Below are positions 13,103-30,870 of a stretch of DNA of 64,000 nucleotides, piece after piece. A model generated the notes under the pieces. That model ran no database searches. It was not told where the DNA came from and worked only from the letters and a program-made list of their open reading frames with translations. Source of the stretch: Escherichia phage vB_Eco_slurp01. How positions within the stretch are numbered: position 1 is the stretch's first letter; every line of letters begins with the position of its first letter. A program made the position numbers and the translations under genes. The DNA is taken from sequence record LT603033. The stretch is one strand, 5' to 3'.

Positions 13103-13122
13103 ACCACCAGCTTGTGCTGGTG
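13103..13122. other. Palindromic hairpin made of two inverted Chi octamers (CCACCAGC-TTGT-GCTGGTGG)
   Basis: Read directly; perfect 8-bp stem. Confidence 0.6.
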
Positions 13123-13238
13123 GATTCCCTCTAACAGTATTCAGTACTACATGATGGTCTTCATCCTCCTAGGGTAACATAGTGAGGGCTATGATGGCAG
13201 TACTGAATACTCCCTTTCAAAAGATAGATCTATGGTAT

Positions 13239-13440
13239 AGTACTGACGGATTTTGGGTGTAGTTACCCTGGATGGATTTTGGGCGTAGATATGTCTAGCC
13301 CTCCAGAAGTCTGGAAGTAAAGATGGCTATCCATCTAGACGGCTAAACGGCTAGATTTCTGGATGGCTGGATGGCTAGACGTTTGGACGGCTAAACGGCT
13401 AGATGGTTACACGTCTGGAAGTATAGACGGCTAAATCAAA
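13239..13440. repeat. Iteron-like cluster of short direct repeats
   Basis: GACGGCTAAACGGCTAGAT x2, GGATGGCT x3, TCTGGAAGTA x2, ATTTTGGGCGTA x2-3; AT-rich tract follows at 13441-13460. Confidence 0.6.
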
Positions 13441-14060
13441 ATTTTATTTTGTTTTTCCAATAGTTCCCCTACCGCGTGGGGATAGTTTCCCCGCAGTATC
13501 TGGAGTTAGATTTTTCTGAATCTGGAATCATTATCTTATAAACTGGGGGCAATGTCAACGACCTGGACGGATATTTTTAAAAATTTTTTCAGTACTGAAT
13601 TTTGGGCGTAACTATGCACCCGGTGGGCTTGAGTCTTTCTCGACTTGATGGAACTATTATACAGTACTGGAAAAATAAAGCAATACCCTGGATGAAAAAA
13701 GTTTTAATTAATTTGCTTGCCATCCTGGGCCGGACTATGGTACTATAATTCAGTACTGAGAAAGTGCGTTAACCTGCTAGGGTGCGGGAGTGTATCCTTT
13801 TTTTATATCTTGAATTTTGGACGGATCTTCCCACCCCCTGGGGTATCCGCTTTCTCGCGTCTATGTAGTAATTATACGCTTTTTCAGGATCAAGTCAATA
13901 CCTAAAAACAAAATAATTGAAAATAATTTAACGCGTTTAAACGGCCCGTAAAGCCCTGGAATGATTGGAATGGTGCAAATGTATAGCTTGGGTGTATTAA
14001 TGCGTTAGAATGCGTCTGAGGCCGTTTTACGGGGTGTAGTAGTGATTTGGTGGATTGATT

Positions 14061-14215
14061 CAGTACTGAATAATAGTACTCCTATATAGAAAGATAGTTC
14101 CCCTGGATGGTTGCAGTACTGAATAATAGTACTCCTATATAGAAAGATAGTTCCCCTGGATGGTTGCAGTACTGAATAATAGTTCCCCTATATAGAAAGA
14201 AAACTATTTTAAAAG
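14061..14215. repeat. Tandem direct repeat, 53-bp unit x ~3, immediately upstream of first early promoter
   Basis: CAGTACTGAATAATAGTACTCCTATATAGAAAGATAGTTCCCCTGGATGGTTG repeated. Confidence 0.85.
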
Positions 14216-14231
14216 TATTTGTAGAAAGTAC

Positions 14232-14259
14232 TTGCAAACTATGTTTAACGGCGTATAAT
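14232..14259 (+). promoter_or_regulatory. Early promoter, sigma70-like
   Basis: TTGCAA N16 TATAAT. Confidence 0.7.
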
Positions 14260-14272
14260 GTTTTACATCGAG

Positions 14273-14291
14273 AGCGGGAACACTTCCCGCT
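14273..14291 (+). other. Promoter-proximal hairpin (AGCGGGAA-CAC-TTCCCGCT)
   Basis: 8-bp stem immediately downstream of predicted start site; member of the recurrent hairpin class. Confidence 0.6.
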
Positions 14292-14314
14292 ACATATTAC
14301 GAGAGATTAAAACG

Positions 14315-14677
14315 ATGGCGACTCAAATCACTAAAATTATTGCTAACCTGGTTAACTTTCGCGACGAGATGAAAGATCTTCCGGCAGAAACGGTAAAAAT
14401 TCACATTGCAGCTTATCGGGAACTTATTGCAATGTTACCTCTTAAGCGTGAACAATACGCCGCTACCGTGATGCTTGATGCGATGATCCATAAGATGATC
14501 GCCAGTGATTTAACGATGGTTTATCAGTATATGGGCGAAAATTTCGCGGTGTATAGTAAACCAGTACCAGGAATGGAAAGTACAGAAGTATTACACGGTT
14601 TAAATTTAAAACAAGATGCATGGGATAATATGCCTCGTTTCCTGGTATGGGCTGACAGTGGCAAAATTTACGAATAA
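14315..14677 (+). CDS. Hypothetical early protein (120 aa)
   Basis: ORF 14258..14677 trimmed: upstream ATG lies inside the -10 element; GAGAGA RBS before MATQITK. Confidence 0.7.
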   Translation: MATQITKIIANLVNFRDEMKDLPAETVKIHIAAYRELIAMLPLKREQYAATVMLDAMIHKMIASDLTMVYQYMGENFAVYSKPVPGMESTEVLHGLNLKQDAWDNMPRFLVWADSGKIYE

Positions 14678-14691
14678 GTTTAATAAAGTAC

Positions 14692-14719
14692 TTGCAAACT
14701 ATGTTTAATGGCGTATAAT
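14692..14719 (+). promoter_or_regulatory. Early promoter
   Basis: TTGCAA N16 TATAAT; hairpin GTGGGGAA-TAG-TTCCCCAC at 14732-14750. Confidence 0.7.
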
Positions 14720-14770
14720 GTTTTACATCAGGTGGGGAATAGTTCCCCACTATATAAGAGGATTAAAAAA

Positions 14771-15010
14771 ATGGCTAAATCAAAAATGTTCTTAGGTCAC
14801 AAAAACAAAACTCATTGGAATGTAAGCCTTTGGATTAATAACGATGAATCATTATACCGGTTGGCCCTGGACTTTATTGCCGCCAATACTAATCGCAATG
14901 ATGCGGCCCGTCATATGATGTTATTTTTAGAACAGACTGGACAAGATAAAACACCGGACGGATTCAAATATAGCACTACTGCGATCCGTGCGGCAATGGT
15001 TGGAATGTAA
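14771..15010 (+). CDS. Hypothetical early protein (79 aa)
   Basis: ORF 14708..15010 trimmed to ATG after AAGAGGA RBS. Confidence 0.7.
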   Translation: MAKSKMFLGHKNKTHWNVSLWINNDESLYRLALDFIAANTNRNDAARHMMLFLEQTGQDKTPDGFKYSTTAIRAAMVGM

Positions 15011-15032
15011 TAGAATAGAATTTATTTAAAGT

Positions 15033-15061
15033 ACTATTGCACGGGGATAGTACTTTATAAT
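15033..15061 (+). promoter_or_regulatory. Degenerate early promoter (TATAAT present, -35 region shortened)
   Basis: Aligns with the promoter at 26483-26511 but has a deletion in the spacer. Confidence 0.4.
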
Positions 15062-15098
15062 AGTGTTTTATTCATACACCAACGATAAGGGCAACAGC

Positions 15099-29266: not shown

Positions 29267-29454
29267 CAGTTGAAGAAGTTAAAAAAGTACTGGCAGTACT
29301 ACGCTATCATAACCATTGCAAGGTTAAGAATGATCCTGATTATGTTGATTCATCCCTGGAGGAAGACACATTAAACGCAATAAGCCATATGCAAACATTA
29401 GCAAAGCGTATGACCGAAAAGAATAGACCGGACTATATCGGAAATAAAATTTAA
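29263..29454 (+). CDS. Hypothetical protein (63 aa)
   Basis: ORF track; ATGA overlap. Confidence 0.6.
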   Translation: MTVEEVKKVLAVLRYHNHCKVKNDPDYVDSSLEEDTLNAISHMQTLAKRMTEKNRPDYIGNKI

Positions 29455-29461
29455 AAAGTAC

Positions 29462-29489
29462 TTGCATTGTAGTTAGATTAACGTATAAT
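29462..29489 (+). promoter_or_regulatory. Early promoter
   Basis: TTGCAT N16 TATAAT; hairpin GCGGGGGAA-TAG-TTCTCCCGC at 29502-29522. Confidence 0.7.
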
Positions 29490-29540
29490 GTTTTACATAG
29501 AGCGGGGGAATAGTTCTCCCGCCAGTCCGGGAGATACACC

Positions 29541-29807
29541 ATGAACACTATCGAAATCACTATCAATGCACACGTATACGACAACGTAGTACTGCAAACT
29601 ACTATGACCGCTAATGATACCAGTACTTTGCGGAATACCGTTGTAAGTGCTGTATGTGCTGCAATCGGTGATGTAGCCCTGGAAAATGCAGAACACATCA
29701 ACAACGGTTTCACTATGTGCAAACGTGATAACGCAAAACATATCATCTTAGAAGGTTACGGCGGTGTAGAATATAATCTTTATATGAAAAAAGTACTTGC
29801 AAAGTAA
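29541..29807 (+). CDS. Hypothetical early protein (88 aa)
   Basis: ORF track. Confidence 0.7.
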   Translation: MNTIEITINAHVYDNVVLQTTMTANDTSTLRNTVVSAVCAAIGDVALENAEHINNGFTMCKRDNAKHIILEGYGGVEYNLYMKKVLAK

Positions 29808-29824
29808 CTAAAACAAAGTATAAT
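29797..29824 (+). promoter_or_regulatory. Early promoter
   Basis: TTGCAA N16 TATAAT; hairpin GGGGGAG-ATATC-CTCCCCC at 29835-29853. Confidence 0.7.
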
Positions 29825-29872
29825 GTTTTGCATAGGGGGAGATATCCTCCCCCACTAATAAGGAGTACTAAA

Positions 29873-30097
29873 ATGGCTAACTTTGATGAACTGATGCGGG
29901 AAGTAGCTAACCTGGCAGAAGAGAAGAAATCATTCGATTCTATCTATAACACCGCTTACAGTGATTCAGTACTGGCATGTACTCAGGATCAAAAAGATGA
30001 ACTAATCGCCACATATCATGAAGCATGGAAGTACTACCGCCAATGGGAGAAAGAAGAAAGCGAGTCTACCATCAACGGCATCAATAATCTAATCTAA
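29873..30097 (+). CDS. Hypothetical early protein (74 aa)
   Basis: ORF 29828..30097 trimmed to MANFDELM after AAGGAG RBS. Confidence 0.7.
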   Translation: MANFDELMREVANLAEEKKSFDSIYNTAYSDSVLACTQDQKDELIATYHEAWKYYRQWEKEESESTINGINNLI

Positions 30098-30115
30098 AGT
30101 TTTATTTCAGTACTA

Positions 30116-30144
30116 TTGACATAGCTTGATAGTACTGATATGAT
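30116..30144 (+). promoter_or_regulatory. Early promoter (no-hairpin class)
   Basis: TTGACA N17 TATGAT. Confidence 0.65.
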
Positions 30145-30172
30145 AACTTTACTAACTACAAGGGGAAACATC

Positions 30173-30430
30173 ATGGAACAATTCACACAATATCGGGTAA
30201 ATCCTCAAGCTATGGCCTACGTAGAAGACCATAAAACGTTACCAGTACTGCAACCAGTTAAAGGCCATATCTATCGTGCGATGGCGTGGAGTACTGCCCA
30301 GGATGGCTATAAAACCGTTGCCGTTGGTATGTACTGCGGTAATGGTGAATGGTTTGATCCAAATAATCCGGTAGCAATTGACAGTACTGAAAAAATGAAA
30401 TGGGCCGACTACATCGAAGATATTTCATAA
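30173..30430 (+). CDS. Hypothetical early protein (85 aa)
   Basis: ORF 30140..30430 trimmed to MEQFTQY. Confidence 0.65.
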   Translation: MEQFTQYRVNPQAMAYVEDHKTLPVLQPVKGHIYRAMAWSTAQDGYKTVAVGMYCGNGEWFDPNNPVAIDSTEKMKWADYIEDIS

Positions 30431-30437
30431 AAACTAT

Positions 30438-30465
30438 TTGACAGTACTAACCAGTAATGTATAAT
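30438..30465 (+). promoter_or_regulatory. Early promoter
   Basis: TTGACA N16 TATAAT; hairpin 30478-30498. Confidence 0.7.
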
Positions 30466-30520
30466 GTTTTACATAGAGCGGGGGAATAGTTCTCCCGCCA
30501 ATAGTTTGGAGTAAAACATT

Positions 30521-30721
30521 ATGTCTATCGCTCTCGCCCTGGTTGAAGTACTGAAAGAAGCTAAAGCCAACCTTATCGATGTACAGATTAAGGAATTGCA
30601 AAATGGTTTAATCGGCTGTACTTGTACCGCTGGTGGAGCGGCAGACTATCGAGAACACGAATCACTAGAATCGTTGGTCCGGTATCTTACAATCATCGTA
30701 GAAGATTGGAGAATCATCTAA
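30521..30721 (+). CDS. Hypothetical early protein (66 aa)
   Basis: ORF track; TGGAG RBS. Confidence 0.7.
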   Translation: MSIALALVEVLKEAKANLIDVQIKELQNGLIGCTCTAGGAADYREHESLESLVRYLTIIVEDWRII

Positions 30722-30725
30722 CAAA

Positions 30726-30870
30726 AAAGAATAAAAAAGGGATTGACTCCGGTCAGTCCCTTTGCTATTATATACGCATAGACAAAAACTAGCCCACAGG
30801 GTGCATAGGTGTATCTAAAATATATAGTTAATAACGGTGAGTAACTATCTGCTGGTGGAGTGAAAACTAT
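30726..30870 (+). repeat. Repeated intergenic module, copy 4
   Basis: Hairpin + TTGACT-N17-TATTAT, CCCACAGGGTGC, Chi octamer at 30851. Confidence 0.7.

Follow-up and report, generated by a model that had tools for sequence, protein, structure and literature searches.

A Chi octamer array in the direct terminal repeat of Asteriusvirus and related jumbo phages and its proposed role at the genome ends

Introduction

The RecBCD enzyme of E. coli recognises the octamer GCTGGTGG, known as Chi. A 64-kb piece of the genome of Escherichia phage vB_Eco_slurp01 (LT603033) carries many exact copies of this octamer within a short interval, nearly all of them in one orientation. This piece, the whole stretch of DNA that was analysed, is referred to below as the window. 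The phage is an Asteriusvirus, one of the 121Q/Rak2-like jumbo phages of E. coli. An earlier reading made from the letters alone (the sequence-only reading) had noticed the cluster and connected it with the degradation of linear DNA by RecBCD. The locus raises the question of why a phage genome should hold so many Chi sites in one place, with one prevailing polarity and with sharp limits on both sides.

Chi octamers in the window

The exact octamer was sought on both strands of the window. A total of 11 copies were found, against 0.47 expected from 100 dinucleotide-preserving shuffles, the highest of which contained 3. Nine copies lie on the plus strand and two on the minus strand (13104 and 5994). 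Ten of the 11, nine plus and one minus, fall within positions 12519–32218 (Table 1). Chi was absent from both strands of 32219–64000, though the genes there are also on the plus strand and the GC skew is positive. The excess that the sequence-only reading had claimed is real, and its interpretation is supported. Its list of eight plus-strand sites and one inverted copy was essentially right, but two sites had escaped it, 27636 on the plus strand and 5994 on the minus strand, and three of its coordinates needed correction (13115 to 13116, 13103 to 13104 and 30620 to 30629).

The flanks of the ten clustered sites are mutually unrelated, and what recurs is thus the octamer as such. Six sites are non-coding; the other four are read in two reading frames, and three of these share an Ala-Gly-Gly reading.

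The cluster as a direct terminal repeat

The window is approximately 93–97% identical to E. coli Asteriusvirus jumbo phages with genomes of 350–386 kb, including 121Q, PBECO4 and vB_Ec-M-J. Its nearest relatives were all isolated on E. coli or Salmonella, and the enterobacterial host that had been proposed from the Chi sites agrees with this kinship to E. coli Asteriusviruses. The record of vB_Ec-M-J annotates "Direct Terminal Repeats" of 21,525 bp, whose two copies are identical. The records of vB_Ec-M-J and fEgEco12 begin at the mapped left end. Local alignment placed window position 12519 at base 1 of vB_Ec-M-J and position 32218 at its last base, 378573. Positions 1–12518 of the window correspond to the unique sequence before the right-hand repeat of vB_Ec-M-J, and those from 32219 on to the unique sequence after the left-hand repeat. 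This alignment indicates that the assembly collapsed two copies of a direct terminal repeat (DTR) into one.

The window, vB_Ec-M-J and fEgEco12 share identical boundary sequences, AGTAGGCAGAGGAAGTCTGCC at the left and GGGCGGGTAACCT at the right. For fEgEco12, PhageTerm gave the termini and restriction digests confirmed them (PMC13070987). In the phage Sharanji the same two motifs enclose exactly 20,668 bp, which is the DTR size published for it from PhageTerm (PMC11895373). Experimental termini for the phages compared here are given in PMC13070987, PMC11895373, PMC11218385 and PMC11273794. By homology, positions 12519–32218 probably represent the DTR of about 20 kb, so that the virion DNA would have one copy at each end.

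All ten clustered Chi lie inside this 19,700-bp DTR homologue. The sequence-only reading had overlooked that the cluster is the direct terminal repeat. Seen as such, its sharp limits are accounted for, and the inverted copy at 13104 becomes a Chi that faces the left terminus. A genome end had been expected to the right of the cluster, and position 32218 does match the right physical terminus of vB_Ec-M-J and fEgEco12.

Table 1. Positions in the window of the DTR homologue, its terminal motifs and the clustered Chi octamers
Feature	Position	Strand	Description
DTR homologue	12519..32218	+	19,700 bp, single copy in the assembly; about 50 small plus-strand early genes with sigma-70-type promoter modules of their own
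Left-terminus motif AGTAGGCAGAGGAAGTCTGCC	12519..12539	+	First bases of the vB_Ec-M-J and fEgEco12 records
Right-terminus motif GGGCGGGTAACCT	32206..32218	+	Final DTR bases in vB_Ec-M-J and fEgEco12
Chi	13104..13111	−	Left arm of Chi-N4-Chi palindrome; 585 bp from left terminus
Chi	13116..13123	+	Non-coding; right arm of palindrome
Chi	19002..19009	+	Intergenic
Chi	22975..22982	+	Intergenic; 3′ arm of terminator-like hairpin
Chi	24020..24027	+	Within open reading frame (ORF) 23921–24115; GCT-GGT-GG = Ala-Gly-Gly
Chi	25288..25295	+	Intergenic; variable slot of repeated module, promoter just downstream
Chi	27636..27643	+	Within ORF 27598–27840; CTG-GTG = Leu-Val
Chi	29051..29058	+	Within ORF 28994–29266; Ala-Gly-Gly
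Chi	30629..30636	+	Within ORF 30521–30721; Ala-Gly-Gly; absent in 121Q (segment divergent)
Chi	30851..30858	+	Intergenic, promoter just downstream; plus-strand Chi nearest the right terminus (1,360 bp)

Specificity of the excess

Markov models of orders 0–4 fitted to the DTR (12519–32218) predicted 0.10–0.34 plus-strand Chi, against 9 observed. Orders 5–6 were set aside as overfitted on 20 kb, where they regenerate the observed count from the sites themselves. The GC content of the DTR is 38%, against 35% elsewhere in the genome, and its GC skew is positive. When the approximately 13,000–14,000 octamers of the DTR were ranked by Poisson p-value, Chi took the 14th place in the window and the 22nd in vB_Ec-M-J. 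The octamers ranked above it all come from a sigma-70-type promoter module or from a genome-wide palindrome, CAGTACTG. Among the 168 permutations of its composition (G5C1T2), Chi was the commonest in nine of nine DTRs, with 7–12 copies; the other 167 had a mean of 0.08–0.26 copies per DTR and a maximum of 4. Variants of Chi with one mismatch numbered only three in the window DTR. The enrichment concerns the exact octamer, not its composition.

A repeated intergenic module allowed the sites to be compared within otherwise similar sequence. The four paralogous copies were aligned as ...gtgtatctattRtat[X]agtactGAAAACTA..., where X is a variable slot. The copy at 21699 has AATGTTTG as X, and the one at 28575 has AAGTATTC. 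In the remaining two copies GCTGGTGG, at 25288 and 30851, stands just upstream of the conserved GAAAACTA. The 30851 copy has diverged more in its upstream part, and its placement in the [X] slot is approximate. The comparison confirmed the earlier observation that two of the four modules have a Chi where the others have unrelated sequence.

Recurrence in related phages

Two complete genomes, those of vB_Ec-M-J and the Klebsiella phage fENko-Kae01, were assembled from the phage collection. The intergenomic similarity of fENko-Kae01 to fEgEco12 is only about 29% (PMC13070987). Both complete genomes showed a much higher Chi density in the DTR than in the rest (Table 2), and outside the DTR Chi exceeded the order-3 model only about two-fold. 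For the other phages, the DTR counts were set against 20–44 kb of flanking sequence. The XbC2 DTR had been set by PhageTerm (PMC11273794).

Table 2. Chi octamers (plus/minus strand) in the DTR and outside it
Phage	DTR	Chi in DTR	Sequence compared	Chi outside DTR	Density ratio	Binomial p
vB_Ec-M-J	21.5 kb	9/2	rest, 335.5 kb	14/9	7.5	3e-6
fENko-Kae01 (Klebsiella)	19.7 kb	12/2	rest, 320.6 kb	12/6	12.6	8e-10
fEgEco12		10/2	flank	0/0		
Sharanji		9/1	flank	0/1		
121Q		9/1	flank	0/0		
EJP2		7/1	flank	0/2		
Muenster (Klebsiella, Alcyoneusvirus, 30.7% GC)	20,030 bp	7/1	flank	0/0		
XbC2 (Mimasvirus)	17,581 bp	7/2	flank	1/1		

The nine DTRs with the array span at least four lineages. The window DTR has nine plus-strand Chi to one minus-strand Chi, and the other eight have 7–12 to 1–2. 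Chi enrichment is specific to the DTR and conserved across genera. The whole-genome counts, which the sequence-only reading had made the check on its claim, gave a strong local excess together with an orientation bias.

Ten core Chi occupy homologous positions in five Asteriusvirus genomes. Between genera the positions are not homologous. A few Asteriusvirus Chi were gained or lost through point mutation, for example CCACCAGC versus CCACTAGC and GCTGGTGG versus GCTGATGG. The view that the sites were selected rather than inherited therefore holds in part. The ten core sites are inherited at fixed positions within the genus, but the comparison of paralogous modules and the recurrence at non-homologous positions in other genera speak for selection.

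Chi orientation relative to the physical ends

Recognition of Chi requires RecBCD to arrive from the 3′ side of 5′-GCTGGTGG-3′, and an upper-strand Chi is active for an enzyme that entered at an end to its right (PMC12315714). The nine plus-strand Chi of the DTR, in its right-hand copy, are oriented for RecBCD moving leftwards from the right terminus at 32218. The first of them lies 1,360 bp from this terminus, and the others are spread across the following 17 kb. Among the remaining Asteriusviruses whose termini are mapped, the corresponding first distance is 1,361–1,362 bp; fENko-Kae01 has 375 bp, Muenster 1,089 bp and XbC2 1,213 bp. Of the DTR Chi, only the minus-strand site at 13104 has the orientation suited to RecBCD that enters at the left end. 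Its distance from the left terminus (Table 1) compares with 577–587 bp in the other Asteriusviruses; the value for fENko-Kae01 is 483 bp, and that for XbC2, where the left-end Chi is a solo site in unrelated sequence, is 215 bp. Taken together, a left-facing Chi lies 215–587 bp in for three of the four lineages with mapped termini, and a right-facing Chi lies 375–1,362 bp in for all four. At both inferred genome termini in the window (12519 and 32218), Chi has the orientation that its activity requires.

The two Chi nearest the left terminus form the palindrome CCACCAGC-TTGT-GCTGGTGG (13104–13123), as the sequence-only reading had stated. It is a perfect 8-bp hairpin, and the complementarity ends exactly at the octamer edges. 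The Chi at 13104 is kept in five Asteriusviruses and in fENko-Kae01, which bears the same Chi-N4-Chi palindrome in otherwise unrelated flanks. The palindrome keeps both octamers while the loop varies (ttgt, acaa, ttaa) and the flanks diverge.

The loop (13112–13115) is ttgt in the window, fEgEco12, Sharanji and 121Q, and its reverse complement, acaa, in vB_Ec-M-J (596–599). This suggests that the palindrome centre has flipped with both Chi arms retained. The palindrome was also considered as a general mobile or structural element and rejected as such: a scan of IMG/VR for CCACCAGC-N4-GCTGGTGG gave 46 matches, all unrelated except 121Q. The unrelated matches are mostly on high-GC contigs, and some are ordinary terminators. 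Secondary structure was likewise rejected as a cause of the Chi sites, as only the palindrome and the 22975 site fold convincingly.

Proposed role of the array

We consider it likely that at the genome ends the DTR Chi array halts RecBCD and brings about RecA loading inside the DTR, and that it thereby protects the DNA and promotes recombination of one repeat with the other. When the linear genome enters the cell, RecBCD would bind a free end and degrade inwards. At Chi its nuclease activity would be reduced, and RecA would be loaded on the 3′ tail. This tail would be DTR sequence, so a homologous partner would be available at the other end: the tail could invade the DTR copy there, on the same molecule or on a sister molecule. 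The limits of the array at the DTR boundaries fit this proposal, because a Chi outside the DTR would give the tail no partner. The outcome would be survival of the genome plus DTR-by-DTR recombination into a circle or concatemers, which could prime replication.

Chi is recognised in approximately 20–40% of RecBCD encounters, and after nine sites only a few per cent of the enzymes would remain unconverted. The multiple Chi would thus offset incomplete recognition at each encounter. Protection against RecBCD is what we infer from the sequence and its geometry. The authors of the fEgEco12 study proposed circularisation via the DTR, without mention of Chi (PMC13070987). A full-text search of the open-access literature found no mention of Chi or RecBCD function in papers on Asteriusvirus or related jumbo phages, and the Chi pattern in these DTRs is apparently unreported so far.

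Several points weigh against this role. The window termini are placed by homology, because the assembly contains a single DTR copy. In Muenster the nearest left-end Chi lies 6,453 bp in. No experimental RecBCD interaction was found for these phages in the open-access literature. The genomes of vB_Ec-M-J and fENko-Kae01 are annotated with genes for UvsX/RecA-like, UvsY, SbcCD-like and endonuclease VII proteins, located outside the 64 kb of the window, so that a need for host recombination is not obvious. If these phages depend on the host pathway at all, they would do so only until such proteins of their own are made. The 9:1 asymmetry of plus and minus Chi in the DTR is left without an explanation by the proposed role. 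A G-rich word arises more readily on the G-rich coding strand, and this may account for part of the asymmetry: under the order-3 model, 0.33 plus-strand and 0.09 minus-strand Chi are expected in the DTR. XbC2 was reported on Xanthomonas (PMC11273794), a genus without a known Chi sequence. Within Asteriusvirus, nine of ten octamers are invariant against 52% of the flanking 8-mers (p = 0.015), a weak test because the five genomes are so alike that this share of flanking octamers is also invariant. Purifying selection within the genus is thus weakly supported, and the case for selection is carried mainly by the recurrence across lineages and the module comparison.

We speculate further, and with some doubt, that the DTR is an expendable, Chi-studded buffer. 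The first end to enter would offer RecBCD a redundant copy of the early genes. The Chi array would convert, and after recognition disable, the few RecBCD molecules of the cell. The RecA-coated DTR tail would then invade the other DTR copy and could start circularisation or recombination-dependent replication. If this were so, virulent jumbo phages that encode UvsX would still rely on host RecBCD and RecA in the first minutes of infection. The 9:1 polarity would then predict that the right end is exposed or leading, and hence that packaging runs from left to right. A PHROGs scan of 20 DTR-encoded proteins found no recognisable RecBCD inhibitor or DNA-end protector; nearly all of them belong to families of unknown function.

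The proposed role would extend the recent idea that some phages exploit, rather than inhibit, host Chi and RecBCD; so far argued for temperate P1 and for small lambdoid phages, it would then apply to a whole group of virulent jumbo phages. Among the members of this group are phages of 350–380 kb on E. coli, Klebsiella or Salmonella, and many of these are under development for therapy. Part of the puzzling 20-kb terminal repeat would acquire a definite function, and the array may serve as a sequence-only means to locate and orient the physical ends in assemblies with a collapsed repeat. The predictions concern rec mutant hosts, Chi-less mutants, the first-entering end and the susceptibility to RecBCD-linked defences.

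Alternative explanations

The main benefit of the array might be the limitation of spacer acquisition by CRISPR systems, and of other defences fed by RecBCD products, rather than survival or recombination. Levy et al. are said to have found in 2015 that naive adaptation by the E. coli type I-E CRISPR system is RecBCD-dependent and bounded by Chi. Chi near the ends would shorten the stretch degraded into spacer precursors. This explanation is compatible with end protection and calls for the same geometry, and the sequence offers nothing that separates the two. However, CRISPR systems are silent in many E. coli strains, and the array fills the whole DTR, not just the parts adjacent to the termini. 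We regard it as unlikely that such a benefit is the main one.

It is quite unlikely that the octamer is a site for a phage factor or a host factor other than RecBCD, such as the terminase and packaging machinery or a regulator of early transcription, and matches Chi by coincidence. In favour of such a site, the DTR, to which the Chi are confined, is where signals for packaging and early transcription reside and where other short repeats crowd the termini, and two Chi lie directly upstream of promoter modules. The octamer is also enriched in XbC2, a phage reported to infect Xanthomonas. However, XbC2 is close to the Cronobacter phage GAP32 (PMC11273794) and may have inherited the array from an ancestor on enterobacteria. 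In every lineage the match to the host Chi is exact at eight of eight positions, and one-mismatch variants are almost absent. The positions, spacing and context of the sites (coding, intergenic or hairpin) are irregular and not conserved between genera, and their polarity follows the RecBCD rule at both physical ends.

The Chi sites could also serve the repair of broken replication forks, with an orientation set by rightward replication through the DTR and not by the virion ends. The plus-strand Chi do follow the direction of transcription and the G-rich strand, which is also the case on the E. coli leading strand. Such a role would leave the confinement to the DTR unexplained, as the adjacent 32 kb of co-oriented genes have no Chi, and it would not explain why several lineages have a counter-oriented Chi at a distance of a few hundred bp from the left terminus. 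We consider it very unlikely.

It is hardly credible that composition, codon usage or module copying in a slightly GC-richer, host-transcribed early region produced the excess as a by-product: the higher GC content and positive skew of the DTR, the Ala-Gly-Gly reading common to three coding sites, the two sites in paralogous modules and the mild excess in the rest of the genome would suit it, but Chi comes first of its 168 permutations in all nine DTRs, Markov models to order 4 predict fewer than 0.4 copies, most sites are non-coding with unrelated flanks, Chi sits in the variable slot of the modules and not in the copied part, and Muenster has the same pattern at 30.7% GC.

Other repeats and genes in and around the repeat

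The palindrome CAGTACTG, which contains AGTACT, occurs 55 times in the window against 0.69 expected and is densest at 12300–17400. In the 335-kb unique part of vB_Ec-M-J there are 184 copies against 26 expected. Some copies overlap promoter elements (AAAAAGTACTTGCA at −35 and tAGTACTGTATAAT at the extended −10), and most lie elsewhere. Its excess is larger than that of Chi.

A highly conserved early promoter module of the sigma-70 type, AAAAAGTACTTGCA-N17-(C)GTATAATGTTTTACAT, precedes most DTR genes, with approximately 22 copies between 12866 and 31365. It is followed by a conserved 5′-leader hairpin of the type GGGGAGAAnnnnTTCTCCCC. Beyond the DTR boundary the genes are tightly packed or overlapping, and the promoter module is gone. 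A repeated intergenic element of about 100–160 nt was found at 21556–21713, 25187–25287, 28432–28589 and 30723–30823, and also at 13820–13875 and 17343–17398. It holds the motif CCCACAGGGTGC, with the reverse complement GCACCCTGTGGG at other sites, and lies upstream of some promoters. Two copies of this element carry the Chi insertions. An Rfam search of positions 11000–34000, this element included, returned no family.

The first 1.7 kb of the DTR (12519–14258) is a non-coding segment with several short repeat arrays. They include ATCAAAAGTA repeats near 12583, an array with an 8-nt period at 13305–13433 (GGATGGCT, AGACGGCT, AAACGGCT...) and a 53-nt tandem repeat of 2.6 copies at 14061–14200. 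These repeats look like a putative cluster of protein-binding sites, for an origin or for packaging. At 12314–12509 a perfect 60-nt tandem repeat, with 100% identity over 3.3 copies, stops 9 nt short of the DTR boundary at 12519. Located in the unique sequence abutting the right-hand repeat copy, it is a candidate signal for packaging or terminase recognition, or for repeat duplication.

On the minus strand at 258–7443 lie six paralogous genes of 370–430 aa, which are annotated as RCC1-like ("regulator of chromosome condensation") in relatives. This gene array is just upstream of the right-hand DTR and has approximately 14 copies in vB_Ec-M-J. The minus-strand Chi at 5994, the only Chi of the window outside the DTR, is on the coding strand of one of these paralogues. 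The homologous gene arrays of vB_Ec-M-J and fENko-Kae01 carry three minus-strand Chi each. Position 5994 was therefore left out of the DTR array, as it sits in an RCC1-like gene whose counterparts in relatives carry similar small clusters. To the right of the DTR, positions 32219–40000 hold a long run of small (about 70–90 aa), overlapping and apparently paralogous plus-strand genes, which correspond to EcMJ_054-090 of vB_Ec-M-J.

Comparison with known systems

Terminal Chi clusters have been described in phage P1 and its relatives (Subramaniam & Smith, bioRxiv 10.1101/2021.07.08.451572; Adv Genet 2022). As in the jumbo phages, Chi is far above expectation in P1 and is concentrated where the terminal repeats of the virion DNA form. 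The proposed function is also alike, namely RecBCD/RecA recombination between terminal repeats that circularises the injected DNA. P1 is temperate and packages by the headful from a pac site, with a variable terminal redundancy over 20–40 kb. It has about 50 Chi, which become denser towards both ends and occur in both orientations. Unlike P1, Asteriusvirus phages are virulent, have genomes of approximately 350–380 kb and exact repeat ends, and their array halts at the repeat boundaries. The array is also almost unidirectional, with one counter-oriented Chi beside the left terminus.

The lambdoid phage LLS, of the "No Rec module - high Chi" class, has 23 Chi, 20 of which are active for RecBCD entry at the right end (PMC12315714). 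The same study (Genome Res 2025) showed that RecBCD enhances LLS growth and read the strong non-randomness of the sites as a sign that Chi matters for growth. Many Chi clustered towards the right end and a strong bias for right entry are features shared with the window DTR and its 9:1 ratio. The LLS class consists of cos phages of about 30–60 kb without terminal repeats and is defined by the lack of phage recombination genes. The Asteriusvirus group differs in this defining feature, as it encodes UvsX, UvsY, SbcCD-like and endonuclease VII proteins.

The jumbo-phage ends have been classed by PhageTerm as long DTRs of the "T5-type" (PMC11273794). Phage T5 likewise has a long, non-permuted direct terminal repeat, its first-step-transfer DNA, with host-transcribed pre-early or early genes. 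The 10,219-bp repeat of T5 (AY543070.1) holds only two Chi, at 8127 and 8689, both on the plus strand and none on the minus strand. They lie 1.5–2.1 kb from the right boundary of the repeat, with the same polarity as in the jumbo phages, and do not form an array. T5 was rejected as a second example, as two Chi are too few to judge.

Dabert et al. in 1992 and Kuzminov et al. in 1994 reportedly observed that linear DNA is degraded less by RecBCD in vivo when it carries a Chi in the proper orientation. That work is said to have used engineered plasmids (linear or rolling-circle DNA) with one or a few Chi, whereas the DTR holds a natural, conserved array of many sites. The present case extends the known terminal Chi arrays and is not conceptually unprecedented. 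It differs from them in that the array is confined to an exact DTR, in virulent phages that have their own UvsX and UvsY.

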